A stretch of DNA of 64,000 bases from an uncultured Acidobacteriota bacterium (GTDB taxonomy: Bacteria > Acidobacteriota > Vicinamibacteria > Vicinamibacterales > 2-12-FULL-66-21): NCBI GenBank assembly GCA_963810305.1, contig CAWEMY010000005.1, forward strand, positions 525,304 to 589,303. The letters run 5' to 3'. Positions 5,781 to 62,694 of this stretch are shown here, one piece after another. The notes under the pieces were generated by a model that was not told the origin of the DNA, did not search any database, and worked only from the letters and a program-made list of their open reading frames with translations. Every line of letters begins with the position of its first letter. The stretch's first letter is position 1. The position numbers and the translations under genes are program-made.

Positions 5781-5917
5781 ACGCGGGGCGCGGGGCGCGG
5801 GTCGCAGTGCGGGATGCGCGGTGCGGGATGCGGGATGCGCCTTACACACAACCCGATTCGCGCCACGCCCGCGCCCTGCGAACCGCGCCCTGCGAACCGC
5901 GCACCGCGCCCCGCGCA
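5781..5917. repeat. Intergenic heptamer-repeat block arranged as an imperfect inverted repeat
   Basis: 5782-5837 holds about 8 units of CGCGGGG/CGGGATG type. 5870-5918 holds units CCGCGCC/CTGCGAA, whose complement is the same unit type. It fills the whole gap between convergent apbC and the MFS gene. Confidence 0.8.
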
Positions 5918-7090
5918 CTACGCGCCGCGTGACGGGCGAAGGCGACTCATCGCCATGGCGCCGAGGATCGGGCCGGGCACGAGCAGCAGGAACGCCCACC
6001 GCCATCCATAGCTGGCCGCGACGAGCGGCAGCAGTCTCATGCTCACCATTGTCAACAAGAAGCCGGCGCAGGTTTGGAGTGTCAGCGCGGTGCCGACGTG
6101 CGTGCGCGCGCTGTATTCGCTGACCAGCGCGGAGAACTGCGCGGAGTCGGCAACGACGGAAAAGCCCCAGATCACCGCAAGAACCAGTAACGCCTCGAGC
6201 GGCATGGCGTAGAGCAGCCCGGCGGCGGCCGAACAGGCGCCGCTGGTGATGAGGGCGAGGCGTGCGATTCGCGCTTTTCCCCAGCGATCCGCCCACAGCC
6301 CGGCGACAACGCAACCAGCCGCGCCGCTGGCAATCGCCACAAACGCGACGAGCGATCCGCTGCGGCTGTCCTCTGCCCCGGCTGCCGCCAGCGAGGCTGC
6401 GGCAAACGCAGCGATCCACGCCCACATCGCGTAGAGCTCCCACATGTGCCCGAGGTACCCGTAGGTGGCGAGCCGGGCGCCGCGGTTACGCACGACGGCG
6501 CCAAGCGCGTGCCGATCGAACGGCGCCGATGCCGCAACGTGCGGGCCGTCCTTGACGAAGAGATGGACGATGGCACCGCCAATGACGGCGAGCATCGAGG
6601 AACTCAGCATCAGCGTCCGCCACGACAGGTCGGCGGCACTCCACGACAGAAGGTGCGGAAACGCCGAGCCGAGGGTCAAAGCACCGACCACGACGCCAAG
6701 CGCGCTGCCTCGCCGCTCGAGAAACCAGCCGGCGGCGATTTTCATTCCCGGCGGATACACGCACGCGAGCGCCGCCCCGGTCAGCAGGCGCAGGGCAATG
6801 ATGGTCGATCCATCGGACGACCAGGCGATCGCCGCATTCGCCGCGGCGCCGGCGACACAGCCTGCGGCGAACAGCCGACGGGCGTTGAAAACATCCGCAA
6901 GGTTGAGCACGGCGCTGATCAGCGTTCCGGCAACGAACCCTCCCTGCACGGCGATGGTCAGCCACGCCGTCGCCGATTCCCCCAGAGCCAGCTCCGACGC
7001 AATGCGCGGCGCCGCTGCCGTTGCCGAAAACCACAGCGTCATTCCGAAAAACTGTCCGAGCGCAACGAGCGCCAGCATTCGCTGCGGCAT
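5918..7090 (-). CDS. MFS transporter (390 aa)
   Basis: C-terminal 390 aa of track ORF 5918..9088, starting MPQRMLALVALGQFFG. About 12 hydrophobic helices. The rest of that 1056-aa ORF is antisense to ggt. Confidence 0.85.
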   Translation of the reverse strand: MPQRMLALVALGQFFGMTLWFSATAAAPRIASELALGESATAWLTIAVQGGFVAGTLISAVLNLADVFNARRLFAAGCVAGAAANAAIAWSSDGSTIIALRLLTGAALACVYPPGMKIAAGWFLERRGSALGVVVGALTLGSAFPHLLSWSAADLSWRTLMLSSSMLAVIGGAIVHLFVKDGPHVAASAPFDRHALGAVVRNRGARLATYGYLGHMWELYAMWAWIAAFAAASLAAAGAEDSRSGSLVAFVAIASGAAGCVVAGLWADRWGKARIARLALITSGACSAAAGLLYAMPLEALLVLAVIWGFSVVADSAQFSALVSEYSARTHVGTALTLQTCAGFLLTMVSMRLLPLVAASYGWRWAFLLLVPGPILGAMAMSRLRPSRGA

Positions 7091-7132
7091 TTGGCGTTTT
7101 ACGATGGGCGAGAATGCCGGTAGGATGCAACT

Positions 7133-8980
7133 GTGAAATGGGGGACGCGGTGCGCGGGTCGCGGGGCGCGGGGCGCGGGGCGGGTTGTGGCGATCGTCGC
7201 CGCGTTGGGCATTCACGTTTCGGCGCAGCAGACCTTCAAGCCGATTCGCAGTGAAGTCCGCGCGGACCACGGCGTCGTGGCCGCCGGGCGGACGTTTGTG
7301 GCCGATGCCGGCGCACAGATGCTCGTGTCGGGGGGAAATGCGATCGACGCCGGCGTCGCGTCGATGTTCGCGTCCGCGGTGACCGAGATCTCGCATTTCG
7401 GCCTCGGGGGTGAAGCGCCGATCATCATCTACTCCGCGCGCGACCGGCGGGTCGTCGTGATCAACGGTCAAGGATCCGCGCCCAAGGGAGCGTCCCCGGC
7501 ACTGTTCGAGGGAAAGACCGCGATTCCGGGTAACGGGCCGCTGGGCGCCACCATTCCGGCAGCGGTCGACGCCGCGGCGCTCGCCCTGGAGAAGTACGGC
7601 ACCAAGTCGCTCGCGGAAGTCATGGCGCCGGCGATCGCGCTTGCCGACGGCTTCCCGATGTACGAGTTCCTGCGCGGCTACCTGCAATCCGAACGCAAGG
7701 CCTCGGAACCTTACGAGTGGTCGATCCGTACCTACTATCCCGACGGCAAGATCACCCCCGTCGGGGAGATGTTCCGACAGCCGAACCTCGCGGCCACGTT
7801 GCGGGCGCTGGTCGCCGCGGAGGCGCAGGCCAGAAGCGGCGGCGCGACGCGGGAGCAGGCGATCGTGGCTGGACGCGACGCCTTCTACAAGGGATCCATC
7901 GCCACGCGCATGACCGCGGCGGTCCGTGCGGCCGGCGGTGTGATGACCGACGACGATCTGGCGACCTACCGCGGCAAGGTCGAGGAACCCGCAACCGTGC
8001 CGTACCGGGGATTCACGGTCCACAAGGCCGGCTTCTGGAATCAGGGGCCGGCGCTGCTGCAGACGTTGCGTATCCTCGAGGGCTTCGATCTCGCGAAGAT
8101 GGGGCAGGGATCCGCCGACGCGACCCACACGATCGTCGAAGCGGTGAAGCTTGCGTACGCGGACCGGGACCGTTATTACGCGGATCCGGACTTTGCGCGG
8201 GTTCCGGGGCCGGCATTGCTGTCCGCGGAATACGCGACCGTGCGCCGCGCCTTGATCGATCCCGCGCACGCCAGTATCGAGCAGCGGCCGGGTGATCCAG
8301 AGCGCGGCGCGGCACGTATCGGTACAGATATTCCGGTAGAGGCCGGCTTTAGCCGGCCTGACAGGCCGGGCTCCAGCGTCCACCCAGAACCAGGTGACAC
8401 CACCTCGATCCAGGTTGCCGATGCGGCGGGAAATCTGTTTTCGGCCACGCCGAGTTCCGGATGGCTGCTCGGCGGCGCCTTTGTCGCGGGCGACACCGGT
8501 GTGCCGATGAGCAACCGGATGCAGGCCTTCCGGCTCGAGCCCTCCAGCCCGAACGTGCTCGCCGGCGGTAAACGTCCGCGGACGACGCTCACTCCGACCG
8601 TCGTGTTGAAGGACGGCAAGCCGTTTCTCGCAATCGGCACACCCGGCGGCGACAGCCAGGACCAGCAGATCCTGCTCGTCCTGTTGAACATCATCGACTT
8701 CGGTCTCGACGTGCAGGCCGCGATCGAGGCGCCGCGGGTCAACTCGCTGCATCCGCAGAGCTCGTTCGACGATCATCGCGCGCAGCCTGGCGTCCTCGAA
8801 GTCGAACGGACGCTTGCGCCCGACGTTCTCGAAGTACTGCGGTCCCGCGGGCACGTGCTGCGGCTCCGCACGCCGTACGGCATCTCGACGGGAGTGGTCG
8901 CCGCGGGCATCGATCCTGTCACCGGACGCCTGCGTGGCGGCGCCGATCCACGCCGCGAGCGCGCGCTGGTTGCCTACTAG
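7133..8980 (+). CDS. ggt: Gamma-glutamyltransferase family protein
   Basis: 615 aa with a signal-like N-terminus. The autoprocessing/nucleophile region is PGDTTSIQVADAAGN, and GTPGGDSQ is also present. GTG start at 7133. Confidence 0.9.
   Translation: MKWGTRCAGRGARGAGRVVAIVAALGIHVSAQQTFKPIRSEVRADHGVVAAGRTFVADAGAQMLVSGGNAIDAGVASMFASAVTEISHFGLGGEAPIIIYSARDRRVVVINGQGSAPKGASPALFEGKTAIPGNGPLGATIPAAVDAAALALEKYGTKSLAEVMAPAIALADGFPMYEFLRGYLQSERKASEPYEWSIRTYYPDGKITPVGEMFRQPNLAATLRALVAAEAQARSGGATREQAIVAGRDAFYKGSIATRMTAAVRAAGGVMTDDDLATYRGKVEEPATVPYRGFTVHKAGFWNQGPALLQTLRILEGFDLAKMGQGSADATHTIVEAVKLAYADRDRYYADPDFARVPGPALLSAEYATVRRALIDPAHASIEQRPGDPERGAARIGTDIPVEAGFSRPDRPGSSVHPEPGDTTSIQVADAAGNLFSATPSSGWLLGGAFVAGDTGVPMSNRMQAFRLEPSSPNVLAGGKRPRTTLTPTVVLKDGKPFLAIGTPGGDSQDQQILLVLLNIIDFGLDVQAAIEAPRVNSLHPQSSFDDHRAQPGVLEVERTLAPDVLEVLRSRGHVLRLRTPYGISTGVVAAGIDPVTGRLRGGADPRRERALVAY
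7146..7187 (+). repeat. Six tandem heptamers (CGCGGGG type) inside the first 18 codons of ggt
   Basis: The units are CGCGGTG CGCGGGT CGCGGGG CGCGGGG CGCGGGG CGGGTTG. This is the same unit family as 5782-5837. It encodes the GRGARGAGR n-region of the putative signal peptide. Confidence 0.8.
8336..8368 (+). repeat. Hairpin repeat element (GTAGAGGCCGGCTTTAGCCGGCCT + GACAGGCCGG) in frame within ggt
   Basis: The 9-bp arms AGGCCGGCT/AGCCGGCCT are identical to the copies at 49146-49241 and 59823-59870. Here it is translated as VEAGFSRPDRP. Confidence 0.8.
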
Positions 8981-8999
8981 GACGCCGGCGCCTGCTGCG

Positions 9000-10310
9000 A
9001 TGGAGATCTCTTTCAGCCACCGGACCCTCGATAATGGATTGGACGTCCTCGTCCACCAGGACCGCAATTGCCCGATCGTCGCGGTCAACGTCTGGTACCA
9101 CGTCGGATCGAAGAACGAGAAGCCGGGCCGGACCGGTTTCGCCCATCTCTTCGAACACCTGATGTTCGAAGGCTCGCAGCACTACGACCACGGATTCTTT
9201 CAGCCCCTGCAGCAGGCGGGAGCGTCTTTGAACGGATCGACCAACGCGGATCGGACGAACTACTGGGAGGTCGTCCCGCGCAACGCCCTCGAGCTCGCGT
9301 TGTGGATGGAATCAGATCGGATGGGTTATCTCCTGCCGGCGCTGACCGAAGCCAAGTTCAACAACCAGCGCGAGGTTGTGCTGAACGAGCGCCGCCAGAA
9401 CTATGAAAACCGGCCGTACGGGCTTGCCGGGATGGCGCTCGTCGCCGAGCTGTACGCGCCCGATCATCCGTATCACTGGCTCACCATTGGCGCCGCCGAG
9501 GATCTTCGCGCCGCGACATTGGACGATGTGCGTGCCTTCTTTCAGCGCTACTACCATCCGGCGAACGCGTCGCTCGCCCTCGCCGGGGACGTCGACATCG
9601 ACGAGGCGTTCGACCTGGCGGAGAAGTATTTCGGCGACCTTCCGTCGCCCGGGCTGCCTGGCCCCGTCGTAGCCGAGAATCCGGCTCCCCGGACGGCCGA
9701 CGTACGGCTGGTGCTCGAAGATCGAATCGAGTTGCCGCGCCTTTACCTCGCCTGGCATTCCCCGGCGCTGTTCGGAGAAGAAGATGCCGCGCTCGATCTC
9801 GTCGCTGACGTGCTGGCCGGGGGGAAGACGTCGCGGCTGTACCGCTCACTCGTGTACGAGCAGCGCATCGCCACCGAAGTCGCGGCGTCGCAGAATTCCC
9901 GCGAGCTTTCCGGCTACTTTCACGTCGTGGCCACCGCCGCACCGGGACACTCGCTCGAGGAGCTGGAGAAGGCGATCGCGGCGGAGCTCGCAAAAGTGAA
10001 TGCCGACGGGCCCACGGCCGCTGAGATGGAGCGGGGGATTGCCCAGGCGGAGGCGCATTTCATTTCGCGGCTGCAGACGGTCGGCGGATTCGGTGGCAAG
10101 TCGGACCAGCTGAATGCCTACAACGTGTTTCTCGGCGATCCCGCCTTTTTCGACCGTGATCTCGCACGCTATCGCAACGCCACGGCCGCCGATCTGACGC
10201 GCGCCGCCGTCGCGTGGCTTGGGCCGAGCTCGCGTGTGGCTCTCAGTGTCGTGCCGCGCGGCCGCCCGGAGCTGGCCCTGCCAGGGTCGGCGCCGGTGTC
10301 GGTGCACTGA
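9000..10310 (+). CDS. M16 (pitrilysin) family zinc peptidase, catalytic-type subunit
   Basis: ATG at 9000 inside track ORF 8814..10310. The inverted zinc motif HxxEH is present (HLFEH, followed by LMFEGS). Confidence 0.9.
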   Translation: MEISFSHRTLDNGLDVLVHQDRNCPIVAVNVWYHVGSKNEKPGRTGFAHLFEHLMFEGSQHYDHGFFQPLQQAGASLNGSTNADRTNYWEVVPRNALELALWMESDRMGYLLPALTEAKFNNQREVVLNERRQNYENRPYGLAGMALVAELYAPDHPYHWLTIGAAEDLRAATLDDVRAFFQRYYHPANASLALAGDVDIDEAFDLAEKYFGDLPSPGLPGPVVAENPAPRTADVRLVLEDRIELPRLYLAWHSPALFGEEDAALDLVADVLAGGKTSRLYRSLVYEQRIATEVAASQNSRELSGYFHVVATAAPGHSLEELEKAIAAELAKVNADGPTAAEMERGIAQAEAHFISRLQTVGGFGGKSDQLNAYNVFLGDPAFFDRDLARYRNATAADLTRAAVAWLGPSSRVALSVVPRGRPELALPGSAPVSVH

Positions 10311-12968: not shown

Positions 12969-13172
12969 ATGAGCTTCGCCAGGCTGAGCCTCAGTCTCGC
13001 GGCCGTGATCGGCCTTATTGCGACCGCGCTTGCCGGCGCGACCATCTGGCTGCTAATCACCAATCCGGTTGACGTCGCCGAAGCCGTCGCGACGGGCGAA
13101 GTCTCTCCGCTCATGCGCGCGCTTGCCGGCGCCCTCTACAACGCCCTCGAAGGAATCGTCAAATATCTGTAG
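12969..13172 (+). CDS. Small hypothetical membrane protein (67 aa)
   Basis: One clear TM helix (LSLAAVIGLIATALAGATIWLLI). The stop codon lies inside the 28-nt palindrome. No Shine-Dalgarno sequence seen. Confidence 0.45.
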   Translation: MSFARLSLSLAAVIGLIATALAGATIWLLITNPVDVAEAVATGEVSPLMRALAGALYNALEGIVKYL

Positions 13173-13196
13173 GGGCGGTTCGCGAACCGCCCCTAC
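13169..13196. terminator. 28-nt perfect palindrome GTAGGGGCGGTTCGCGAACCGCCCCTAC between convergent genes
   Basis: 14+14 nt perfect arms. It contains the TAG stop of 12969..13172 and lies 4 nt from the stop of the minus-strand hydrolase gene. Confidence 0.7.
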
Positions 13197-13200: not shown

Positions 13201-14262
13201 TCACTCCAGCGCTCGGCGCAAGAACCTGCAGAGGGCGAGCCCGTCCATCCATTTGAACGGCGAGACGCCGGTGCTGTAGTGGCCGCATGGCAGCACTTTG
13301 GTTTGATGCGGCACGCCTCGGGCCTTGAAGTCGGACACCAGCAGGCGCGACAGGGCGAGGGGGAACGTCAGGTCGTACAGCGCATAGACAAGCAGCGTCT
13401 GGCGGTCCATGACTCGATCCAGATACGGCCGCGGCGAGATCGGCATCCAGATCCGCCTCAGGGTTTCGAGGTTGACGTTGCCGTCGAGTGATTGACGCAC
13501 GTGCTCGGTGGAGAGTCCCTCCCAGATGACGTCTGCGAAGTACGGCGAAATGTGATTGAGCGCCGCCGCCTTCACAAGTGGTTCGTGTGCCGTCGTCAAC
13601 ATCGCCAGGCACGAGCCGAGGCTGGTGCCGAGCACGCCGATTGATTCGAATCCCTCTTGGTGCAGCCAGGCGATGGAGCGGCGCGCATCCAGAACGGCCT
13701 GCCGGTTGATGGCAATGGTTCGCCCGACGTTGGCGCTCACGATGTAGTCGGCACGCTTCAGTTCCGGCGGCATGCGCGCCTCGTGATAGGGGAGGGTGAG
13801 CCGCAGCGCCGACAGCCCGAATCGATTCAGCAAGCGGCATAGACCGACATGCCCCTCCGAATCCGCGTTCCACTGTGGCATCACAAGGACCGCGCGTTTT
13901 TTGCCGTTCTGCGAGGCAGGGAAGAAGCGGGCGATCACCGTGTTGTTTTCGGGATGCGGCGTGACGACGGCGCTCTGGAACGTCAGCCGGTCGCCATCGA
14001 CCGAGTACTCGCCCGGGGTTACCGCGAAAAAGTCCTGGCTGCGGCGCAACGCCTCATCGGCCCAGGCCATGAGACGCACCGCAGGGTCGCCGGGAACGTC
14101 CGGTAAGTCCGGCACCCATTCGAGGCCCCAGGCAAACGGACGGACTGTCCTGTTTTCAGCAGCTGCGGCAAGCCTCCGCTCCCAGTTATGAAAGGCTCGC
14201 GTCAGCACAGCTGTTCCTCTGGAAGGGATGTTGCAGCGGACTCTGCATGCATGAACAGCCAC
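13201..14262 (-). CDS. Alpha/beta-hydrolase fold protein
   Basis: 353-aa ORF with the nucleophile-elbow motif GTSLG (IGVLGTSLGSCLA). The exact start is uncertain. Confidence 0.75.
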   Translation of the reverse strand: MAVHACRVRCNIPSRGTAVLTRAFHNWERRLAAAAENRTVRPFAWGLEWVPDLPDVPGDPAVRLMAWADEALRRSQDFFAVTPGEYSVDGDRLTFQSAVVTPHPENNTVIARFFPASQNGKKRAVLVMPQWNADSEGHVGLCRLLNRFGLSALRLTLPYHEARMPPELKRADYIVSANVGRTIAINRQAVLDARRSIAWLHQEGFESIGVLGTSLGSCLAMLTTAHEPLVKAAALNHISPYFADVIWEGLSTEHVRQSLDGNVNLETLRRIWMPISPRPYLDRVMDRQTLLVYALYDLTFPLALSRLLVSDFKARGVPHQTKVLPCGHYSTGVSPFKWMDGLALCRFLRRALE

Positions 14263-20340: not shown

Positions 20341-21465
20341 GTGCCGATGGAGGCAACCGACCGTCCGGTCGCGGATGCATCGTGGGACGAGCACTACCGC
20401 GACGAGCGTGACGCCGCGTTTCTCTATCGTGCGCTGGCGAGTGTCGAGCCGACGGTCGAACGCCGGGAGCTGTTCGAGAAGCTCGCGGCGGTCGAGGATC
20501 GTCACGCGCTTCGCTGGGAGGAACTGTTCAGGGACGCCGAACGACCGCTGCCCGCGCACGCTCCGGCGTTCAGAACCCGCGTCCTCGCGTGGATGGCGCG
20601 GACGTTCGGGTCCTCGCTGATCCTGCCGATGATGCTCGCTGAAGAAGGGCGCGAAGTGCAGGCGTATCTCGGGCTGGCGCGCGGGTCCTCGAATCGGCTC
20701 ACGCACAAGGCCGCCGTCGATATCGCAGCCGACTCCGCCGTCCACGCGCGCGAGCTGTCGGAGGCAATGGGCCGCGAAGGTGAACCGTGGCACACCGGCG
20801 GCGCCGGCGGCGTGCTGCGCAGCGTCGTTTACGGGTTCAATGACGGGCTGACGGCGAACTTCGGCCTCGTCGCCGGCGTGATCGGGGCGGACGTCGCCCC
20901 CCACATCGTGATCATCAGCGGCGTCGCCGGAGCGATTGCCGACGCACTGTCGATGGGATCGAGCGGCTACCTCGCGGCAAAAAGCGAGGCGGAGGTCCAC
21001 GCGCATCAGATCGAGATGGAGCGTCACGAGATGCGGCTGATGCCGGATCTCGAGGAGGAGGAGCTGGCGCTCATTTACGAAGCGAAGGGGCTGCCGGTCG
21101 ATCGTGCACGCGAAACGGCGCACGCGATGATGCAGGATCCCGCTCGCGCCCTGGACGCGATGGTCCGGGAGGAGCTGAACATCCATCCGGCGGAGCTCGC
21201 GCCACTGAAGGACGGCGTGATCACCGGCACCGCGACCGCCGTCGGCGCGTTCATCCCGATCCTGCCGTTCATGATGATGGCCCACGGCAGCGCGATCTGG
21301 GTGTCGCTGGCGATCAGCATGCTCGCGCATTTCGCCATCGGTGGCGCGCGCAGCCTGTTCACCGGCCGCGGCGTGTGGGCCAGCGGCCGCGACATGTTCC
21401 TGGTGGGATTCGGGGTCGCCGCAGTCGGCTACGCGATCGGCGAGCTGATCACGCGGATGCTGTAG
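20341..21465 (+). CDS. mbfA: Erythrin-VIT1/CCC1 fusion (membrane-bound ferritin-like iron transporter, MbfA type)
   Basis: The N-terminus is a ferritin/rubrerythrin-like domain (ERDAAFLYRALA...EDRHA). The C-terminus is a VIT1 domain (VYGFNDGLTANFGLVAGV). The ATG at 20347 is an alternative start. Confidence 0.85.
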   Translation: MPMEATDRPVADASWDEHYRDERDAAFLYRALASVEPTVERRELFEKLAAVEDRHALRWEELFRDAERPLPAHAPAFRTRVLAWMARTFGSSLILPMMLAEEGREVQAYLGLARGSSNRLTHKAAVDIAADSAVHARELSEAMGREGEPWHTGGAGGVLRSVVYGFNDGLTANFGLVAGVIGADVAPHIVIISGVAGAIADALSMGSSGYLAAKSEAEVHAHQIEMERHEMRLMPDLEEEELALIYEAKGLPVDRARETAHAMMQDPARALDAMVREELNIHPAELAPLKDGVITGTATAVGAFIPILPFMMMAHGSAIWVSLAISMLAHFAIGGARSLFTGRGVWASGRDMFLVGFGVAAVGYAIGELITRML

Positions 21466-21489
21466 GGGCCGTTCGCGAACGGCCCCTAC
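21462..21489. terminator. 28-nt perfect palindrome GTAGGGGCCGTTCGCGAACGGCCCCTAC carrying both convergent stop codons
   Basis: TAG of mbfA (21463-21465) and TAG of the minus-strand cytochrome c (complement of 21486-21488) sit symmetrically in the two arms. It differs from 13169-13196 only by a compensatory G:C to C:G swap. Confidence 0.7.
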
Positions 21490-21884
21490 GTCTTCTTCCT
21501 CAACGACTGGACGTAGGTCACGACCGTCCAGATCTGCTGCTCGTTCAACTCCTCCTTGAACGCCGGCATCTTCGGCTTCTTCCGGCCGTTCGACACTTTG
21601 TAGAAGACCGTTCCGTCATCATTGCGGTCGGCGCGCTTCGGGTTGGTGAGGTCGTTATCTGTCGCGTCGGGATCGGCGTCCGGTCCGTCGCCGAGTCCGC
21701 CGGGGCCGTGGCAGCGCTGGCATTTGTCCTTGAAGATGGCTTTGCCGGCGGCGAGGGTCTTTGCGTCCACCGTCAGCGGATTCTTTTTCGTCGGCGCATC
21801 CTCGCCGAGAGTCCACCCGCCACTTTGCGGTACCGATAGCGCAATCACGGTCACTGCCGCGACGCAGAGAAGATGAATGCTCAT
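21486..21884 (-). CDS. Small secreted c-type cytochrome
   Basis: Internal ATG at 21884 gives MSIHLLCVAAVTVIALS (signal peptide). One CxxCH motif (CQRCH) and a distal Met (KMPAF). Confidence 0.8.
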   Translation of the reverse strand: MSIHLLCVAAVTVIALSVPQSGGWTLGEDAPTKKNPLTVDAKTLAAGKAIFKDKCQRCHGPGGLGDGPDADPDATDNDLTNPKRADRNDDGTVFYKVSNGRKKPKMPAFKEELNEQQIWTVVTYVQSLRKKT

Positions 21885-21907
21885 GTTGAAATGATACAGT
21901 TTTTTCA

Positions 21908-22798
21908 ATGAGCGACCGCCGCCAGCCAACCGAGAAGCCTGTCGAACAACCTCTGGCGTATCACGACGTGGGCTTCCTCGAAAGCACGGACGCGAGGCCA
22001 CTTCGGATTCTTGCCGAATACCTCGAGCCGCTGCAGCGGTTTCGCCTGCACAACATCCAGGACACCGTGGTGTTCTTCGGCTCGGCGCGTACACTCAGCC
22101 GCGAGCTCGCGCAGGAAGCGCTCGACAAGCTCAATACCGACGACGCCAGGAAAGCCGCCGATTACGATGCGGCGCTCAAGCGCAGCAGGAAAGCACTCGA
22201 GTGGTCGAAGTACTACGAGGAGGCCCGCGAGCTGGCGCACATGTTGACCGAGTGGAGCCTCTCGCTCGAGGAGCCGCGGCGGCGTTTCGTCGTGTGTTCC
22301 GGCGGAGGGCCCGGCATCATGGAGGCGGCCAATCGCGGCGCGCACGAGGCGGGCGGCAAGACTGTGGGCTTGAACATCCGGCTGCCATTCGAGCAGGGGC
22401 CGAACCGCTATATCAGCGAAGGCCTGCATCTCGAGTTCCACTACTTCTTCATGAGGAAGTTCTGGTTCGCCTATCTGGCCAAGGCGCTGGTCATCTTCCC
22501 CGGCGGATTCGGCACGCTCGACGAGATGTTCGAGATTCTGACGCTGGCGCAGACGCGGAAGCTGTCGAAGAAGCTGTGCGTGATCCTGTACGGCAGCGAC
22601 TACTGGCGCGACGTCTTCGATCTCAAACCGCTGGTCGAATGGGGCGCGGTCAGCGAGATCGATCTCCAGTTGTTGTGTCACGTCGACACCCCGGCGGCCG
22701 CGTTCGAGCGGCTGCGGGACCATCTGATGACGCATCACATGGTGCCGGAGACCGCGCAGGAGAACAAGGCACCGGGGATTGCCAAGACACGCGGATAG
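21908..22798 (+). CDS. LOG / TIGR00730-type Rossmann-fold nucleotide phosphoribohydrolase family protein
   Basis: Motifs GGGPGIMEAANRGA and PGGFGTLDEMFE. Confidence 0.85.
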   Translation: MSDRRQPTEKPVEQPLAYHDVGFLESTDARPLRILAEYLEPLQRFRLHNIQDTVVFFGSARTLSRELAQEALDKLNTDDARKAADYDAALKRSRKALEWSKYYEEARELAHMLTEWSLSLEEPRRRFVVCSGGGPGIMEAANRGAHEAGGKTVGLNIRLPFEQGPNRYISEGLHLEFHYFFMRKFWFAYLAKALVIFPGGFGTLDEMFEILTLAQTRKLSKKLCVILYGSDYWRDVFDLKPLVEWGAVSEIDLQLLCHVDTPAAAFERLRDHLMTHHMVPETAQENKAPGIAKTRG

Positions 22799-33686: not shown

Positions 33687-33770
<84 letters not shown>

Positions 33771-49145: not shown

Positions 49146-49241
49146 CAGGCCGGCTAAAGCCGGCCTCTACCTGTCGAAGACCAGGCCGGCTAACCCGGCC
49201 TCTACCTGTCGAAGACCAGGCCGGCTAAAGCCGGCCTCTAC
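49146..49241. repeat. 2.7 tandem copies of a 35-nt unit containing the AGGCCGGCTAAAGCCGGCCT hairpin
   Basis: The unit CAGGCCGGCTAAAGCCGGCCTCTACCTGTCGAAGAC starts at 49146, 49181 and 49216. The last copy supplies the secG stop codon. The hairpin is the same as at 8336 and 59823. Confidence 0.85.
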
Positions 49242-49537
49242 TTTGGCTGCTGCTGTTGCTGCGGCGCCGCCGGACTGCCGACTCCCTGGATCAACGAACC
49301 CGGGCCGCGCTGGCCGAGGATCCCGAGCACGATCGCGCCGATCATGAACAGCGCCCCGAGGATCGAGCTGGCACGAGTAAGGACGGTTGCTCCGGCGCGC
49401 GCGCCGAACGCCGTCTGGCTCCCGCCGCCGCCGAACGCGCTTGCCATGTCCCCCCCTTTGCCCTGCTGCAGCAACACCACGAGCAGGAGCAGGAAGCACG
49501 AGAGGACGTACAAGGTCGCGATCAAGTAGTAAAGCAT
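49238..49537 (-). CDS. secG: Preprotein translocase subunit SecG
   Basis: Internal ATG at 49537 gives MLYYLIATLYVLSCFLLLLVVLLQQGKGGDMASAFGGGGSQTAFGARAG..., the hallmark SecG pattern. Confidence 0.85.
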   Translation of the reverse strand: MLYYLIATLYVLSCFLLLLVVLLQQGKGGDMASAFGGGGSQTAFGARAGATVLTRASSILGALFMIGAIVLGILGQRGPGSLIQGVGSPAAPQQQQQPK

Positions 49538-49586
49538 AAGTGCCGATTTTACAGGATCAGCCTCGTTCTTGCACGTTTCCTCACGT

Positions 49587-50192
49587 TCACCCCTGCCAAT
49601 ACGCGTCGGGATCATCCATCGGCAGGACCGCGGCTTCGACCTGAATATGGCCGTTCTTCTTCACGTCGATGGTTCTTTCAGGCACCTCGTACCCAGGTTT
49701 CGAAACGAACAGTCTGTGCTCGGCCCCTGCTACGGCAAACCTGGCCAGGCCGGTTGCGTCGGTCGATCCTCGATAAACACCCAGGCGCACGTGTGCATCA
49801 TGGATCGGGGCTTCCGTGTCCCTTTCCACGACTTTGACGGCCACGAGGTGTTCTGGCGGCGGGACGACCACGAACGTAAACGAGCAGGACGACGCGTGGT
49901 GCGGCAACGGCCGATCGGCTGCGGCAAAGTGAAGGGACCAGGAAAAGACCCCCGGCTCGACCGGCGCGACCACTCCGATGTCAGTCCAATACAATGCCGT
50001 CGTGCCCGGCAGAGGTGCGTCTCCCAGCACCGAGCCGGCTACTATCTCGCCGGCTTCATCGCGGATCTCGATCGGTTGCCCCGCGAGTACACAGCCTGCC
50101 GTGCATCTCGCGGCCACCTTGAGTCCATACCTTTCGCCAATCACGACCGGCGACGGATTGTCCCAGACGGCCAAACTCGTCTCGTGAGGCAT
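49587..50192 (-). CDS. Hypothetical protein with C-terminal carboxypeptidase-regulatory-like (beta-sandwich) domain
   Basis: Internal ATG at 50192, 10 nt after the upstream stop. The C-terminal VRLGVYRGSTDATGLARFAVAGAEHRLFVSKPGYE resembles CarboxypepD_reg-type domains. Confidence 0.55.
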   Translation of the reverse strand: MPHETSLAVWDNPSPVVIGERYGLKVAARCTAGCVLAGQPIEIRDEAGEIVAGSVLGDAPLPGTTALYWTDIGVVAPVEPGVFSWSLHFAAADRPLPHHASSCSFTFVVVPPPEHLVAVKVVERDTEAPIHDAHVRLGVYRGSTDATGLARFAVAGAEHRLFVSKPGYEVPERTIDVKKNGHIQVEAAVLPMDDPDAYWQG

Positions 50193-50202
50193 CGGACCGC
50201 TC

Positions 50203-51936
50203 TTATCCAAGGGGCTTGGCCGCTGCCATTCCCGCCAGCCGTCCGAAGACGGCGCACCTTCCGAGGCCGTGTAGCGCGAATCCGCCCTGGACCTCACCGG
50301 CAGCATACAGTCCCGGGATCACCTCGCCACGAGTATCCATGACCTGGCAGCTGGTGTTCGTTCTGAGACCGGTGACTGAATCGTGGAGACACGGGGTCGC
50401 CCAGGCTGCGTAAAAGGGCGGCCTCGCGATCTTATGTGGCGGGCTGGGCCTCTTGAAGTCCACGTCTACGCCGGTATCCACGAAGGAGTTGAAGCGTTCG
50501 ACCGTTTCCCGAAGGACTGTGGGGGGCATCGGCCTCCGCTGGAATGGGTTTCGGATCTGCCTCGCCAGTTCCTCCAATGTCTCACCGCTGAAGAAATAGC
50601 CGCCCTCCCGATCGACCACCGGCGGCTCGGTCGACCAGCGCTCTCTCTCTACAGCGGCTCGATCGAAGATCGCCCAGATTGGCCCGCCGCCGTTCAGCTT
50701 GTCGGGATCGTCCGTGCCAGCCAGCGCATGGGCAAAGTATCCATCGTGGCTGCCGTCCAGCTCATTGTAGAATCGCCGGCCATTTTCCTTCACGAGGATC
50801 AGATTCTGCCAGTTCGTTACCGACATGCCGCTGGCGCGGGCCCTGAAAAAGACGGGACTCTCAGGAGTGATCAGCGCGCGTGCGTAGTTGTCCTGCGTGG
50901 CGAGGCGTCCCTTGTTCAACACCCGGTGCTGGTGCGCCTGGTTGACGGTGCCCCAGAGGGAGGCGCCGACGGCCATGGCGGCAAGCTCTCCATCACCGTT
51001 GTGGGGCGCCAGCGTATGGCCATGCCACTGATACTCCGACGTCAGGCGCGGGTCGAACAGGCGGCGGAACTGAACATTGTTCCCGTGGCCGCCGGTGCAC
51101 AGGACTACGCCCCTGCGGGCCCGGATATTGATGGTCCGCTCCATGGGCCGGAAATGACGGTCCACCTGCCCGACGGTGACACCTGTCACCCTGCCGGCGG
51201 TGCGCCCTTCCCTGAAGACGCTCAGCATTCTGTGCGACAGGAGAATCTCTACCCCTTTGCGCCGCGCGCTTCGCTCGAGCGCCCTGACGATACCCGACCC
51301 GTTTCTTCGCTGATCGTGGGCCACGAGCTGGCTGCGGATCGGCCATTCACGCGGCCGGATCTCTCTCGGTACCGTCGAAGCGTCCTCGGGCCCGCCGAGG
51401 TAGTCTTCCTCCCAATCGAGTCCGTTCTCGGTCAGAAACTCGAACGTCGCTACAGTCTCGTCGGCAAACATGCGAACGAGCTCTCGATCGTTGAATCTGG
51501 CTGCCACGTGGTCGGGCCGGGTCCAGTCTCTGAAGACCATGTCGGGCGAATCCTCGATGCCCTTCTGCTTCTGGAGCCTGTTGCCGCCACCAAGGTGCAT
51601 GCTGCCGCCGCTCATGATCGCGATTCCGCCGATGTCAAAATGCTGCTCGACCAGCAGCACAGAGGCGCCTCCGTCGCGCGCCGCAATGGCCGCCGGGAGG
51701 CCGGCTGCGCCTGCTCCGAGGACCACGACATCGACTTCGCGGTGCCACTGAATCTCGCCGGCTTGGGCGGCTGGCGCCGCCTGGGTGGCTGACGCAGCTG
51801 TCGGGCCAAGTCCTGCAAGAGTCGCGGCCCCGCCGACGCCGGCGATCGCACCCGACCTGAGGAACTTCCTTCGACTGCCACTACGTGGGTTCCCGCTGTC
51901 ACCGTGCTTTCGACGATCTCGATCTTCGTTGGCCAC
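50203..51936 (-). CDS. Tat-exported FAD-dependent oxidoreductase (fumarate reductase / KstD-like flavoprotein family)
   Basis: Twin-arginine signal SRRKFLRSGAIAGVGGAATLA and dinucleotide motif VDVVVLGAGAAGLPAAIAARDGG. The proposed GTG start near 51936 is approximate. Confidence 0.8.
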   Translation of the reverse strand: MANEDRDRRKHGDSGNPRSGSRRKFLRSGAIAGVGGAATLAGLGPTAASATQAAPAAQAGEIQWHREVDVVVLGAGAAGLPAAIAARDGGASVLLVEQHFDIGGIAIMSGGSMHLGGGNRLQKQKGIEDSPDMVFRDWTRPDHVAARFNDRELVRMFADETVATFEFLTENGLDWEEDYLGGPEDASTVPREIRPREWPIRSQLVAHDQRRNGSGIVRALERSARRKGVEILLSHRMLSVFREGRTAGRVTGVTVGQVDRHFRPMERTINIRARRGVVLCTGGHGNNVQFRRLFDPRLTSEYQWHGHTLAPHNGDGELAAMAVGASLWGTVNQAHQHRVLNKGRLATQDNYARALITPESPVFFRARASGMSVTNWQNLILVKENGRRFYNELDGSHDGYFAHALAGTDDPDKLNGGGPIWAIFDRAAVERERWSTEPPVVDREGGYFFSGETLEELARQIRNPFQRRPMPPTVLRETVERFNSFVDTGVDVDFKRPSPPHKIARPPFYAAWATPCLHDSVTGLRTNTSCQVMDTRGEVIPGLYAAGEVQGGFALHGLGRCAVFGRLAGMAAAKPLG

Positions 51937-52009
51937 TCTGGCGCCTCCGCGTCCGGCGATCTGCCGATGGGTCAAAAGGGAGTACTCGTGGTTGGACCCG
52001 AGTGGTACG

Positions 52010-53589
52010 TCAAAAGCGGTCGATGCCGCTGGTCGTCCCGGCAGGAAGTTTCGCGCCCAACTTGAGGAGCAGGGCCATGGTACTCTCGTACCTGCTGGCC
52101 CCCGCACGCTGACCCACGCCAGCTGCAATCTGGTACGGCGTCAACCCCCGGCGGTCCGCCGCGTTCAGATTCGCGCCCTTGTCGGCCAGGAATTGAACGA
52201 TGCTGTCCCCCTGGATGCTGGCGGCGTGGTGCAGTGCGGTTTGGCCACCCGGACCCGGCGCATCGAGGTCGGCACCAAGGGACGCGATCAGTTGCACGGC
52301 CTCCAGAGCTTTCGCCGCCTCCTCCTTGCTGCGTTCCTGACCCGCCCCGTCAATAATCCGCTTTGCTCCTGCAGCGAGCATCAACGCCGTCGTCCCATCC
52401 TCCAACGCCAGATCCGGATCGGCGCCTGCAGCCAGCATCATGCGCATGATGCGAACGTCACCGGCGGCAGCGGCCAGAGCAAACGGTGTCCCTCCTTCGG
52501 GGTTATTCTCCCGAAACGTAAACATCGCCAGCCGCGAGAAGCGCCGCGTGACCCGAGCGTTCGGATTCGCGCCCCGCGAGAGAAGCGCCTCGACCAGCTG
52601 CGGCATGTTGGGGCGCCGTACGGGATCATGAAAAGGTCTGAAGAGGAAGCCGCTGATTGCGGCCCATCCTTCGGGCACCGCATGATGCAACGCCGTCCAG
52701 CCATAGGCATCCGCCGCATTTGGGTCTGCTCCATGCTCCAGCAGGAACCGGGAGAGCGCCTCATGGCCGCTGGCGGTCGCCATCACCAATGGGCTGGGGT
52801 TCTGTGCCGGCACAAAACAGAGGGGGTCGTCCGGGCCGGTGCGGTCTCGGTCGGTTGTGCCAATGCAGGCCCCACCGGTCAGGTCACGACGGGCTCCGGG
52901 CGCCCGGGAGGTGACCTCGTTCACGTTCGCGCCCGCCGCGACCAGAATCCGGGCTGACTCGAGGTCTCCCTCCTGTGCGGCAAAGAGCAACGCCGTGAAT
53001 CCACCCGTGGAGCGTGCACGCCAATCCGCTCCTGCCTCGATCAGCGCCCGTACGACTTCCGGGTGTTTCGCCGCAACGGCCCGCATCAAGGCCGTATGCC
53101 CCCCTTGCCGTGTCTCCTTCGCATTCACGTCCGCTTGGCGAGACAGCAGGGACTTGACCGCTTCCACGTGGCCCGTGCGGGCGCATGTCATGAGCGCCGT
53201 CTCTCCGGTCCACTGGGTCAGGTTCGGATCAGCGCCAGCCCTCAAGAGGGTCTCGACCATGGCGCGCTCCGATTGACGCAGGCGAGTGTCAGAGGCGTAA
53301 CGCCGTAGGTGTTGGCCAAATTTGGATCGGCGCCAGCGCGAACCAGAAGATCTGCCGTCTCCAGGTTGTCCCGGTGGGCTGCCCACGCCAACGCGGTCGC
53401 TCCATCAGGTTCGGTCGCATCGACCTTTGCGCCCTGTTTTATGAGAGCACGCACGACCGCAGGCGAGCTGCCGTTCTTGACCGCCGCCAGCAGCCGCAGA
53501 TCGTCGGCGGCGACGGGAATACTGGCGGCTGAGAGCATCCACGCCAACGCCCAGCCGGCGCGAACGCTGGTTCCATCCATCGTGAACAC
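52010..53589 (-). pseudogene. Secreted ankyrin-repeat protein (~12 repeats), one frame change near 53265
   Basis: Track ORF 53242..53589 gives a signal peptide and the first repeats, ending at ...GVTPLTLACVNRS. Track ORF 52010..53386 continues ERAMVETLLRAGADPN..., with repeated G.TALH.A motifs. Confidence 0.8.
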
Positions 53590-53592
53590 GCG

Positions 53593-57486: not shown

Positions 57487-57641
57487 TGACTCCCCCTTGC
57501 AGAGCCGATGGCGCGTGCGACACTTCGGGTCGGGGCGATTATAGCAACTACCTTCGTGGCTCCAACCTCAGAGCGGCAGGGACGTTCGTCGGCAGCGCCT
57601 GCCGACGTAGAATGTGTCGCGTGAGGCCAACTCGCCCGGAG

Positions 57642-58262
57642 ATGCCCCCAGGACGCGGCAAGATACATACATCGATTGCGGCCGTTGCCTGCCTCTTGCT
57701 GACGTTGGGATATGGGGCCTCCGCCACAATCAGCCAGGTCGCGCCTCGTTCGCCATCGATCTGGGATGGGGTCTTCTCTGAAGCGCAAGTCCGACGGGGG
57801 AAACAGGCTTATCAGGCTAGCTGCGCCGCGTGCCATGGCGACGACCTGGTTGCTGTGGATCCCGAATCGCCTTCCCTGACGGGCCCGCGGTTCAAAGTGG
57901 CGTGGATTGGCAAGACGATCGCCGAGCCGTTTGAGTTGACGCGAAAGACGATGCCGCCCACCAGCCCCGGCAGCCTTGACAACCAGACGAATGTCGACAT
58001 TCTGGCGTTTGTTCTCGAGTTCAACGGTTACCCCACTGGAGCGAAGGAGCTGGGAGTCGATCTCGCTGTTCTGAAGAGCATCCTGATCGAGCGGGCGGAG
58101 AACCGGCCGCGGCGCTTCGATCCGTTCAGGTCCTCTATACCGCGCTTTGGCGGCTTCGCGACAGGATCTCCGAGAACGCGCGGATCTCGAGGCTGGCGCC
58201 GCCGACAAGCGCGCCATCGACCTCCGGCAACACCATCAGCTCGTGAATGTTGTCGGGTTTGA
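57642..58262 (+). CDS. Secreted c-type cytochrome
   Basis: MPPGRGKIHTSIAAVACLLLTLGYGASA signal peptide and one CxxCH motif (CAACH). The last ~40 codons overlap the tpiA 3' end on the other strand and look non-native, so the true 3' end is uncertain. Confidence 0.6.
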   Translation: MPPGRGKIHTSIAAVACLLLTLGYGASATISQVAPRSPSIWDGVFSEAQVRRGKQAYQASCAACHGDDLVAVDPESPSLTGPRFKVAWIGKTIAEPFELTRKTMPPTSPGSLDNQTNVDILAFVLEFNGYPTGAKELGVDLAVLKSILIERAENRPRRFDPFRSSIPRFGGFATGSPRTRGSRGWRRRQARHRPPATPSARECCRV

Positions 58263-58902
58263 CGCTGCCGCCGTAGATCACGTGACAATGATCCGCGGCC
58301 GCGCCGCCGAACCCCTGGCGGATGCGGTTGCGGATGTGACGATGCGCCTCGTCCACCTGCTGCGCAGTCGCGTTGCGGCCGGTGCCAATGGCCCACACCG
58401 GCTCGTACGCCAGGACGAGGGATCCGATCTGCTCGCCGGTCAGCCCGTCGAGCCCCTGTTTGATCTGCCGGTCGAGCACGACCAGCGTGACACCACGGTC
58501 GCGCTCTTCCAGCGTCTCTCCGATGCACACGATCGGTGTCAGTTGCGCCCCGAGTGCGGCAAGCAACTTTCTGTTCACCGTCTCGTCAGTCTCCTGAAAC
58601 AGCCGGCGGCGCTCGCTGTGGCCGATGATCACGAACTCCGCTCCGGCCCCCTTGATCATTGGCGCGCTGACTTCCCCGGTGAACGCCCCCTCGCGTTCCC
58701 AGTACAGGTCCTGCGCGGCAATGCCGATCGCACTGCCGCGCGCTGCTTCCGCCGCCGCATGCAGCGCCGTGAACGGCGGGGCGACGACGACCTCGATATC
58801 AGAGATGTCCTTGATGATCCGCCGGAACTCCTTGATGAAGACGACCGCCTCGTGGACGGTCTTGTGCATCTTCCAGTTCGCCGCGATGAAAGGAGTTCGC
58901 AT
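58135..58902 (-). CDS. tpiA: Triose-phosphate isomerase
   Basis: Internal ATG at 58902 gives MRTPFIAANWKMHKT. Motifs IIGHSERR and AYEPVWAIGTG. Confidence 0.9.
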   Translation of the reverse strand: MRTPFIAANWKMHKTVHEAVVFIKEFRRIIKDISDIEVVVAPPFTALHAAAEAARGSAIGIAAQDLYWEREGAFTGEVSAPMIKGAGAEFVIIGHSERRRLFQETDETVNRKLLAALGAQLTPIVCIGETLEERDRGVTLVVLDRQIKQGLDGLTGEQIGSLVLAYEPVWAIGTGRNATAQQVDEAHRHIRNRIRQGFGGAAADHCHVIYGGSVKPDNIHELMVLPEVDGALVGGASLEIRAFSEILSRSRQSAV

Positions 58903-58920
58903 AAGAGGGTGCCATGCCAA

Positions 58921-58976
58921 GTGCGACGTGCGACGTGCGACGTGCGACGTGCGACGTGCTACGTGCTAGGTGCCAA
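58921..58976. repeat. Eight tandem heptamers GTGCGAC (5 perfect, 3 degenerate) between pgk and tpiA
   Basis: GTGCGAC x5, then GTGCTAC, GTGCTAG, GTGCCAA. The last units encode the final pgk codons and its TAG stop. Confidence 0.85.
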
Positions 58977-60149
58977 TGCCTCCACGCCCGGTAGTTTACG
59001 TCCGCCGAGGAATTCGAGCGAGGCCCCACCGCCGGTCGAGATGTGGGTGATCCGGTCGGTCACTCCCGCCTTTGCCACGGCGGCGATCGAGTCGCCGCCG
59101 CCGATGACGGTCGTGCCCTTCACTTCGGCCACCGCCTTGGCGATCTCGATGGTGCCGGTCGCGAAGGCGTCGATTTCGAACACGCCCATCGGCCCGTTCC
59201 ACGTCACAGTCTGTGCTGTCCTCAGGACCCGATGATAGCGCTCGATGGTCTTTGGTCCGATATCGAGACCCTTGCGGTCACCGATGCGTGGATCGCCGAT
59301 ATCGAGCATCTCGGTCGGCGCGCCGGCCTCGATTTTCGATGCGACGACGTGATCGACCGGAAGCTCCAGGCGCAGATTTCGCGCGCGCGCTTTCTCTTCG
59401 ACGTCACGGGCAGCATCGAGCAGGTCCTCCTCGACAAGGGAGGTGCCTACCGGAACACCGCGCGCCTTGAGAAACGTGTATGCCATCGCGCCGCCGACCA
59501 ACAGGGCATCCAGCCGCGGGACCAGATTCTGAATCACCTCGAGCTTGTCCGAAACCTTGGCCCCTCCGAGGATCGCGACGAACGGCCGGGAAGGGTTTTC
59601 GAGCACACGCCCGAGGTACTCGACTTCCGCCGCCATCAACAGTCCCGCCGCCGACTCTTTGACGTGCCGGACGATCCCTTCGGTTGACGCATGCGCGCGA
59701 TGCGCGGATCCGAAGGCATCGTTGATATAGACGTCCGCCATGGAACCAAGTTGGGCGGCGTAGGCGGGATCGTTCTTTTCCTCGCCGGCGTTGAAGCGCA
59801 GGTTTTCGAGGAGGACGATTCCAGGCCGGCTGTCAGGCCGGCTGTCAGGCCGGCTAAAGCCGGCCTCTACAGCGGAATCGAACTTCACCGGCTGGCCGAG
59901 GAGCTCGCTCAGCCTGGTCGCCACCGGCTGGAGCGAGTATTGAGGGTCGGGCTTCCCTTTGGGACGTCCGAGGTGCGAGGCGAGGATGATGACCTTCGCG
60001 CCGTTCTCGAGCGCGTACTTGATGGTCGGCAGCGACGCCCGGATGCGCGTATCGTCGGTGATCCTGCCGTCCTTCAGCGGAACGTTGAAATCGACCCGGA
60101 TGAAGACACGCTTGCCGCGGAGATCCAGGTCCTTGACGGTCCTCAGCAC
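58959..60149 (-). CDS. pgk: Phosphoglycerate kinase (intact ORF carrying an in-frame repeat element)
   Basis: Motifs FIRVDFNVP, ASHLGRPKG, LLENLRFNAGEEKND and ISTGGGASLEFL. The start abuts the gap stop with no spacer. Confidence 0.92.
   Translation of the reverse strand: MLRTVKDLDLRGKRVFIRVDFNVPLKDGRITDDTRIRASLPTIKYALENGAKVIILASHLGRPKGKPDPQYSLQPVATRLSELLGQPVKFDSAVEAGFSRPDSRPDSRPGIVLLENLRFNAGEEKNDPAYAAQLGSMADVYINDAFGSAHRAHASTEGIVRHVKESAAGLLMAAEVEYLGRVLENPSRPFVAILGGAKVSDKLEVIQNLVPRLDALLVGGAMAYTFLKARGVPVGTSLVEEDLLDAARDVEEKARARNLRLELPVDHVVASKIEAGAPTEMLDIGDPRIGDRKGLDIGPKTIERYHRVLRTAQTVTWNGPMGVFEIDAFATGTIEIAKAVAEVKGTTVIGGGDSIAAVAKAGVTDRITHISTGGGASLEFLGGRKLPGVEALAPST
59823..59870 (-). repeat. Hairpin repeat element in frame within pgk (codons 94-109: VEAGFSRPDSRPDSRP)
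   Basis: On the coding strand it reads GTAGAGGCCGGCTTTAGCCGGCCT followed by 2 x GACAGCCGGCCT. The core is identical to 8336-8359 and the 49146-49241 units. Confidence 0.8.
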
Positions 60150-62579: not shown

Positions 62580-62584
62580 GAAGC

Positions 62585-62664
62585 GTGCGACGTGCGACGT
62601 GCGACGTGCGACGTGCGACGTGCGACGTGCGATGTGCGACGTGCTGACGTGCTGACGTGCGCAC
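62585..62664. repeat. Tandem GTGCGAC heptamers (8 copies) followed by 3 octamer variants, between waaA and lpxK
   Basis: GTGCGAC x6, GTGCGAT, GTGCGAC, then GTGCTGAC x2 and GTGCGCAC. This is the same unit as at 58921-58976. Confidence 0.85.
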
Positions 62665-62694
62665 GTGCCGGGTTGCAACGTGCTCATGTAATTA

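Follow-up and report, generated by a model that had tools for sequence, protein, structure and literature searches.

A 64,000-nt stretch of DNA from an uncultured Acidobacteriota bacterium of the order Vicinamibacterales (contig CAWEMY010000005.1; hereafter the window) carries a gamma-glutamyltransferase (GGT) gene whose reading frame runs through a repetitive extragenic palindromic (REP) element with a GTAG head. We consider it very likely that this GTAG REP, belonging to a family linked to REP-associated tyrosine transposases (RAYTs), was inserted in frame into the gene and is carried as a neutral passenger in a disordered linker just upstream of the self-cleavage site. The argument draws on the REP anatomy of the element, its membership in a dispersed family, a RAYT flanked by it in a related locus, comparison with GGT orthologues, the predicted disorder of the site and the kept reading frame. 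A previous sequence-only reading had noticed the hairpin and its translation near the autoprocessing threonine, without identifying it as a GTAG-headed, RAYT-associated REP. The relevant features of the GGT locus are:

7187..8980, plus strand: GGT gene (profile match; gene call of a homologue)
8336..8360, plus strand: 25-nt REP core GTAGAGGCCGGCTTTAGCCGGCCTG, coding V402-P409 (VEAGFSRP) (sequence, repeat search, folding)
8361..8369, plus strand: tail ACAGGCCGG, which repeats the right arm partially and imperfectly (sequence, orthologue DNA)
8399..8401, plus strand: ACC codon of Thr423, first residue of the small subunit (structure alignment, invariance)
DIPVEAGFSRPDRPGSS: predicted peptide stretch spanning the insert region

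The core consists of the GTAG head, an 8-bp GC stem (AGGCCGGC/GCCGGCCT), a 4-nt loop TTTA and a trailing G. The tail corresponds to a 12-nt unit, GCCGGCCTGACA, which is found in tandem in the phosphoglycerate kinase (PGK) gene of the window and in the GGT orthologue P0003, where the tail repeat is cleaner (AGCCGGCCTGAC ATCCGGCCTGAA). Core and tail together make up a 33-nt, 11-codon insert, and the open reading frame (ORF) 7133..8980 (+) indeed translates it as VEAGFSRPDRP (...RIGTDIP-VEAGFSRPDRP-GSSVHPEPGDTTSIQ..., with GSSVHPEPGDTTS after the insert). The string GTAGAGGCCGGCTTTAGCCGGCCTGACAGGCCGG is 34 nt long and occupies positions 8336-8369, one position beyond the end at 8368 previously given for it. 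The hairpin is present in both minimum free energy and centroid structures in all three contexts folded with ViennaRNA, and the 60-nt context has a folding energy of -26.5 kcal/mol (z -2.2).

In the window the 18-nt hairpin core is found at 4 places and a 31-mer at two, where shuffles predict 0.15 and 0.00, respectively. The identical 25-mer stands at 8336 (+), 49146 (-), 49217 (-) and 59846 (-), and a variant of 24 nt stands at 49182, giving five copies at three places, on both strands, in genic as well as intergenic DNA; all five possess the GTAG head. Intergenic copies form a triplet with a period of 35-36 nt, in which the loop of the middle copy is 1 nt shorter. The GGT junctions read ATTCCG|GTAG...CCGG|GCTCC and the PGK junctions TCCGCT|GTAG...CCTGG|AATCG, and no target-site duplication was found at either. 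At the gathering threshold no Rfam family matches the element, tRNA-Leu being the only hit in the window. The copies outside GGT are associated with the following features:

49146..49241, minus strand: three tandem intergenic copies between secG and tRNA-Leu(gag) (repeat search)
49238..49240, minus strand: stop codon TAG of secG, supplied by the GTAG head of the first intergenic copy (sequence)
58959..60149, minus strand: phosphoglycerate kinase (pgk) gene, host of the second in-frame copy (PF00162 on every homologue listed)
59846..59870, minus strand: 25-nt REP core identical to the GGT copy, in the same orientation and frame (VEAGFSRP) (repeat search)
59822..59855, minus strand: tandem repeat of the 12-nt unit GCCGGCCTGACA (2.8 copies, as read on the gene strand), coding SRPDSRPDSRPG (tandem repeat search)

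REPs are small repeats that form hairpins and are not autonomous; the maintenance of their families falls to RAYT, a tyrosine transposase of the HUH/Y1 type. An exact 21-mer of the element was found at 15 loci in species-representative genomes, mostly of Vicinamibacterales or metagenome-assembled Acidobacteriota, and at at least 120 metagenome loci, that is, at least 135 loci over both sets. Among 127 unique copies, the sequence immediately 5' of the stem is GTAG in 83 (65%) and GTGG in 29 (23%), together 88%, and the majority lie outside any through-reading coding frame. Partners at a distance of up to 70 nt are arranged head-to-head (31), tail-to-tail (15) or directly (30), a typical head-to-head junction being ...CCCTAC GTAC GTAGAGG.... 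The composite gtttcacaacct-GTGGAGGCCGGCTTTAGCCGGCCT-T(T)-GGTCCGCCTGAAGGCGGACCCCAC-atcggttgtgaaac, a tail-to-tail REP doublet within an 11-nt outer inverted repeat, recurs in L011, L024, L035, L082, L104, L122 and other loci, and its doublet is read through in frame in a UvrC (L029) and in a GH-like protein (L048).

The link to a transposase comes from a related locus, L036, where the exact element lies just 5' of a 169-aa ORF, followed on the 3' side by inverted copies, GGGCCGGCTAAAGCCGGCCCCTAC and then GTAGCCGGCCCCTAC three times, ending in CTAC. The encoded protein contains the HUH motif PDHLHLVV and matches both NF047646, the NCBI equivalog of the REP-associated tyrosine transposase (93.1 bits, cutoff 80), and PF01797 (Y1_Tnp; 27.4 bits, cutoff 23), that is, a RAYT flanked by inverted REPs. 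Another RAYT-like ORF (L115, 2727-3701, minus strand) was rejected as evidence, as its flanking hairpin differs and its NF047646 score of 78 bits lies below the cutoff of 80. That ORF scores 52 bits against PF01797 and is flanked by three copies of AAAAGGGGCCTGGCCCCTTTT devoid of a GTAG head, with which it may form a separate repeat-transposase pair.

With a length inside the 20-40 bp expected of REPs, the element is a short GC-rich palindrome with a GTAG/GTGG end, dispersed mainly in intergenic DNA and arranged in inverted dimers and clusters. Because its anatomy, heads, dimers and RAYT-flanking arrangement match those of described GTAG REPs, we assign it to GTAG-tagged REPs. Several points weigh against a RAYT-mobilized family as the source of the GGT insert. 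Only 1-4 exact 21-mers occur per species-representative genome, and hence the copy number may be modest or the family diverse. The RAYT linkage was observed on one related metagenome contig, and a tblastn-only search of the window with an E. coli RayT sequence gave no match. No transposition event was observed, and the dissemination of REPs by RAYT is itself a hypothesis in the literature.

The host gene is a PF01019 match (411 bits) whose ORF opens at 7133; its start is probably the GTG at 7187, as in the gene call of P0241, a homologue more than 90% identical. The GGT fold and the conserved Thr at the junction of the large and small subunits place the product among the N-terminal nucleophile (Ntn) hydrolases of PF01019/MEROPS T03. 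In solved structures of the E. coli, B. subtilis and H. pylori enzymes, the separately deposited small subunit starts at the position of residue 423, the leading T of GDTTS. The closest solved GGT is available both in its wild-type form (gdT) and as a precursor mutant with T changed to A, and the positions G421-D422-T423-T424 are invariant among 56 homologues. Since solved small subunits begin there, the assignment of Thr423 as the predicted autoprocessing nucleophile, also made in the sequence-only reading, is sound. The element encodes residues 402-412, the last of which, P412, sits 11 residues before T423. The distance to PGDTTS, described earlier as 12 codons, is in fact 7 codons from P412 to P420, or 10 when counted from the end of the 25-nt core.

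Two further observations concern this locus. A 1056-codon antisense open frame (5918..9088, minus strand), a typical high-GC artefact, covers the whole GGT gene together with the upstream MFS-like gene and renders the element as RPAKAGLY; it could mislead automated annotation. In addition, the probable GTG start has one of the window's 7-nt tandem arrays just upstream of it.

We compared the GGT with its 120 best homologues, which are 76-96% identical and come from Vicinamibacterales or Acidobacteria metagenomes; the gene order MFS-GGT-M16-M16 is common to the orthologues whose DNA was retrieved. About 100 of the 120 possess a short linker without VEAGFSRP, of the form RGAARL-xxx-xPQL-TG-EP-xREPGDTT, and VEAGFSRPD-like text appears only in the nearest relatives P0001, P0002 and P0003 (89-96%) and in P0010. 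In the insert-free P0014 the corresponding DNA reads ...ACG TCG ACG CAA CCG CTG ATC GGG GAG CCG CTG CGG GAG CCC GGC GAT ACG ACC. Removal of the 33-nt block leaves 11 residues in the window linker versus 13 in P0014. Aligned in this way, the GGT element appears as a genuine, clean insertion relative to the orthologues, which bears out the proposed in-frame colonization of a tolerant spot; conservation of VEAGFSRP in homologues lacking the repeat, which would have spoken against it, was looked for in the alignment and not seen.

The linker itself varies from 11 to about 35 residues among the orthologues, and HMMER leaves residues 399-418 without a counterpart in the closest solved GGT, whose own stretch at this place counts about 50 residues. 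In an AlphaFold2 model built with 56 homologues (predicted template modelling score, pTM, 0.80), residues 398-422 have a predicted local distance difference test (pLDDT) score below 50 and form coil without secondary structure. The model and the alignment agree with the expectation of a variable, flexible tail before the cleavage site: the insert lies in a predicted disordered, length-variable linker that is tolerant of additional residues.

REPs have reached this linker, roughly 12 residues long and preceding the cleavage site, independently in at least four configurations: forward GGCCGGC, forward GGCCGCC, a head-to-head dimer and two inverted copies with a CAGCCC stem. The linker of P0006 contains GTAGAGGCCGCCTTGAGGCGGCCTG, a compensatory stem variant (GGCCGCC...GGCGGCC) read as VEAALRRPA, and that of P0010 a head-to-head dimer, TTAAGCCGGCTGAAGCCGGCCCCTAC ... 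GTAGAGGCCGGCTTTAGCCGGCCTGAA. P0007 carries two inverted copies of a different GTAG REP, CAGCCCTGAAGGGCTGGACTAC, read as ALKGWTT; at the protein level the same peptide recurs in P0004, P0005 and P0009, and the related AAQQGWP in P0008. In a rough neighbour-joining tree computed with the linker masked, the insert states are patchy, and the insert-free P0014 is nested among carriers. Two GGTs that are 96% identical, P0001 (L142) and P0241, have gained a 21-nt insertion (the CCTGGCCCGAGCACGGTCGAGGGC region) within the hairpin loop, resulting in VEAGFPGPSTVEGSRPD, an insertion inside an insertion. The orthologues P0016, P0017, P0114 and P0119 possess EGGSH/EAGSH inserts, which, judging by back-translation, probably derive from another inverted REP with a CCAC tail.

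As claimed previously, a second gene of the window, pgk, is read through the element in the identical frame. Here the 12-nt unit, built from the right arm and the tail, is repeated, extending the reading to VEAGFSRPDSRPDSRPG. Among 120 PGK homologues the site occurs as a canonical helix AEDCIGPAAAAAIERASRGGK, as a short DDPKADG or, in about 35, with REP-derived inserts. P0156 contains 3.5 copies of GTAGCGTCCGGCTTTAGCCGGAC with a compensated stem (GTCCGGC...GCCGGAC), P0130 retains only a scar, GTAGAGGCCGGC, and the number of SRPD units differs even among PGKs that are 92-100% identical. Thus, in the coding copies of P0006 and P0156 the aligned sequences show that the hairpin is kept and the peptide is not, and a varying peptide with a conserved hairpin fits repeat dynamics at the DNA level rather than a selected peptide. 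The homologue P0128 (87% identical) goes out of frame right after the REP-coded segment (…VEADFSRPEGLTAGLKSSSSKTCAST…), which could reflect a frameshift associated with the REP, a pseudogene or an error of assembly.

When the core is translated in all six frames, three are without stops: +0 (VEAGFSRP), the only open phase on the element's own strand, -1 (RPAKAGLY) and -2 (GRLKPAS). The sequence-only reading had stated that all frames other than the one used contain TAG or TAA; this applies to +1 (TAG), +2 (TAG) and -0 (TAA), and not to -1 and -2. Calling genic copies by third-position GC proved too strict, missing the GGT copy of the window itself, and we relied instead on spans of open frames and on recognizable proteins checked against Pfam. 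By a rough estimate on metagenome fragments, about 15% of the unique surveyed copies are translated inside recognizable genes, and the reading of REPs within genes is general in this lineage. Hosts of the element beyond the window include:

Frame +0: PGK of another organism (L025), 3.5 copies with a 33-nt period
Frame +0: Ser/Thr kinase (L013), between the DFG and APE motifs
Frame +0: KdsB (L017)
Frame +0: UvrC (L029), whole doublet LVSQPVEAGFSRPLVRLPAKKRGPGKADPTSVVKP
Frame +0: GH-like protein (L048)
Frame +0: sulfatase (L103), GRLKPAPT plus VEAGFSRP
Frame +0: biotin carrier (L093)
Frame +0: PurD (L056), two copies
Frame +0: Mfd-like protein (L027)
Frame +0: GrpE (L038)
Frame +0: epimerase (L065)
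Frame -2 (GRLKPAST): ClpB (L021), three copies
Frame -2 (GRLKPAST): PriA (L010)
Frame -2 (GRLKPAST): DnaE-type polymerase (L094)

In this rough, hand-curated sample of coding loci, about 14 use +0, 3-5 use -2 and none uses -1, for which no convincing case inside a recognizable protein was found. ORFs reading RPAKAGLY in frame -1 were rejected as genes, being Arg-rich antisense artefacts or, in L064, having the element upstream of the true start. Three frames are excluded because of their stop codons, an explanation not available for the absence of -1. The use of antisense frame -2 in ClpB, PriA and the DnaE-type polymerase makes the earlier frame argument half right. Its suggestion that a frame shared by two genes hints at selection is weak when based on these two genes (about 1 in 3 among surviving frames), while the wider tally is indeed biased.

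We propose that one copy of the core with a partial tail (33 nt altogether) became inserted into the GGT gene in the phase GTA-GAG-GCC-GGC-TTT-AGC-CGG-CCT, either by RAYT-dependent mobilization of single-stranded DNA or as a copy made from another REP. Survival would require a length of 3n, a phase free of stops and a tolerant loop, and the GGT insert would have persisted because its length is a multiple of three and its site lies in the disordered C-terminal tail of the large subunit. Both the precursor and, at its tail, the mature large subunit would contain the 11 extra residues, most likely as a neutral passenger, and the protein would still autoprocess. Later slippage between GCCGGCC repeats may let the insert grow and shrink in 12-nt and 33-nt steps.

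A neutral passenger has to be weighed against exaptation, in which the segment or its mRNA hairpin is under positive selection, for instance because it adjusts the autoprocessing of GGT or the stability of its precursor, makes translation pause between the parts for the two subunits or offers a site to an RNase. The arrival of several kinds of REP-derived inserts at one GGT linker in different orthologues, inserts at the PGK loop in about 35 of 120 homologues and hairpin-keeping compensatory variants in coding copies all speak for such a role. Most orthologues, however, do without any insert, and family, orientation, copy number and peptide of the insert all vary, which argues against a specific function; the partial scar in P0130, the unstable numbers of 12-nt and 33-nt repeats, resembling neutral turnover, and the predicted disorder of the segment point the same way, and we regard exaptation as improbable. 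A more restricted question is whether the insert arose locally with no transposase involved, through templated repair, gene conversion from a REP copy, slippage or hairpin-primed synthesis. Parts of REPs have frequently expanded in tandem, in steps of 12 nt and 33-36 nt, half-copies exist, and coding copies follow lineage-specific stem variants, as conversion could produce. Yet slippage accounts for expansion and not for the first arrival in a linker containing no similar sequence, as seen in the P0014 DNA; head, hairpin and tail come as one unit in unrelated genes, and a RAYT flanked by the same element exists in L036, making a purely local origin still harder to accept than exaptation.

Two other explanations deserve almost no credence. 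The recurrence of the peptide in many proteins might suggest a native motif, through chance similarity or shared ancestry of a protein module, but the identity extends over 25 of 25 nt, synonymous positions included, between unrelated genes and intergenic DNA (shuffles expect 0), both strands are read, giving the unrelated peptides VEAGFSRP and GRLKPAST, and the segment is absent from most orthologues; the alignment of orthologues and the intergenic copies refute this reading. A repeat-induced chimera or mis-join could be suspected as well, since the source is apparently a metagenome assembly and such errors can arise from repeats. Nevertheless, the frame and the GGT flanks are intact on both sides, synteny is conserved, and independent assemblies from other samples show this insertion at the same site (P0001, P0002, P0003 and P0241). 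In-frame insertion of a GTAG REP carried as a passenger remains by far the best account of these observations.

Several additional repeats were noticed in the window. A second GTAG family occurs at 13169-13196 and 21462-21489 as double-headed perfect palindromes, GTAGGGGC[GC]GTTCGCGAAC[GC]GCCCCTAC, both located between convergent ORFs. The TAG of its head serves as the stop codon of the plus-strand ORFs 12969..13172 and 20341..21465; the minus-strand ORF 21486..22094 takes its TAG stop from the CTA of CTAC at 21486-21488, and a likely real minus-strand gene (13201..14262) ends 5 nt past the 13169-13196 palindrome. Intergenic 7-nt tandem arrays of 5-12 copies each are found at 5795-5929, 7142-7182, 33687-33734, 58921-58973 and 62584-62668, with units that differ by place (TGCGGGA/CCGCGCA, GGGGCGC, GTTCGCG, GTGCGAC, CGTGCGA); one of these arrays lies between tpiA and pgk. 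The genes gap-pgk-tpiA-secG adjoin in relatives (L143-L145), and in the window tpiA (58135..58920, minus strand) and secG (49238..49615, minus strand) are about 8.5 kb apart. The interval 49616-58134 encodes PSD/DUF1592-1588-1585-1587-1595, DUF1552, ankyrin-repeat and FAD-binding proteins and a cytochrome c, and looks like an insertion or rearrangement with the REP triplet region at its secG-side boundary.

The closest precedent is the survey of GTAG REPs by Di Nocera, De Gregorio and Rocco (2013, BMC Genomics 14:522; PMC3733652), in which a minority of these repeats lie wholly inside ORFs and in frame. Intragenic copies were most abundant in Opitutus terrae, many of them in replication and repair genes (uvrABC, dnaE2), and replication and repair hosts occur here too (UvrC, PriA, Mfd-like protein, DnaE-type polymerase). 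The same work described GTGG-degenerate heads, head-to-head and tail-to-tail dimers, mostly intergenic locations near gene ends, heads that provide TAG stops to flanking ORFs, and RAYT genes flanked by REPs. In contrast to the present data, it does not include Vicinamibacterales, this REP sequence or GGT and PGK hosts, and reports repeated hits of one loop by different REP variants only for Xanthomonas recB. Pseudomonas REPIN-RAYT systems (Bertels and Rainey 2011, PMC3116915) share GTAG-headed hairpins, inverted doublets and an HUH/Y1 transposase flanked by REPs, and the same three likenesses apply to E. coli REPs and bacterial interspersed mosaic elements (BIMEs) with TnpA-REP (Ton-Hoang 2012, PMC3333891; Messing 2012, PMC3479197). 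However, REPIN and BIME populations are described as essentially extragenic, whereas roughly 15% of the unique copies lie in genes here. Our literature search found no relevant report of such repeats specific to Vicinamibacteria.

[quoted passage not shown] A MITE reading was rejected in view of the 25-33-nt unit and of junctions devoid of target duplication. Palindromic elements of Rickettsia (RPEs) are tolerated in surface and linker regions of proteins that apparently stay functional, and the classical RPE-1 is roughly 100-150 bp long, encoding about 30-50 residues. The GGT insert, with 33 nt and 11 residues, resembles RPE-1 in behaviour only. We know of no dedicated transposase for RPE-4 and RPE-6. 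RPEs have as their host an alphaproteobacterium that lives obligately inside cells and whose genome is reduced, in contrast to a free-living soil acidobacterium. The common trait is the presence of in-frame palindromic repeats in many protein-coding genes, of which RPEs are the classical precedent (Ogata et al. 2000, as cited in PMC3733652), and the short RPE-4 and RPE-6 are of the CGTC type (PMC3733652).

In-frame GTAG REPs are therefore already known in kind, and REP biology in kind is unchanged by the finding; new are the lineage, the REP sequence and the host genes, including a GGT hit by its processing site. Only two aspects exceed to some extent what has been published: different REP variants have repeatedly used the same two loops, and one open frame seems to be avoided. 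The repeated hits at the GGT linker, inserts in about a third of the homologues at the PGK loop and the use of two of three stop-free frames raise the idea that REP entry is directed by site or phase, or that REP-coded linkers are positively selected, rather than random entry filtered by tolerance. We consider this doubtful; if true, it would imply a target or phase rule of RAYT, or that REP peptides have been exapted to serve as disordered linkers.

In annotation, segments of Vicinamibacterales proteins that resemble VEAGFSRPD or GRLKPAST are best treated as repeat-derived inserts and not as conserved motifs. From an evolutionary point of view, such inserts provide a natural map of insertion-tolerant loops. 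The orthologue-level and DNA-level record presented here indicates that REPs of soil Acidobacteriota are routinely translated within core housekeeping proteins, in the case of GGT beside the catalytic site at which an Ntn hydrolase cleaves itself. Together, the GGT linker and the PGK loop offer a tractable case for establishing whether REP insertions are targeted or merely filtered.

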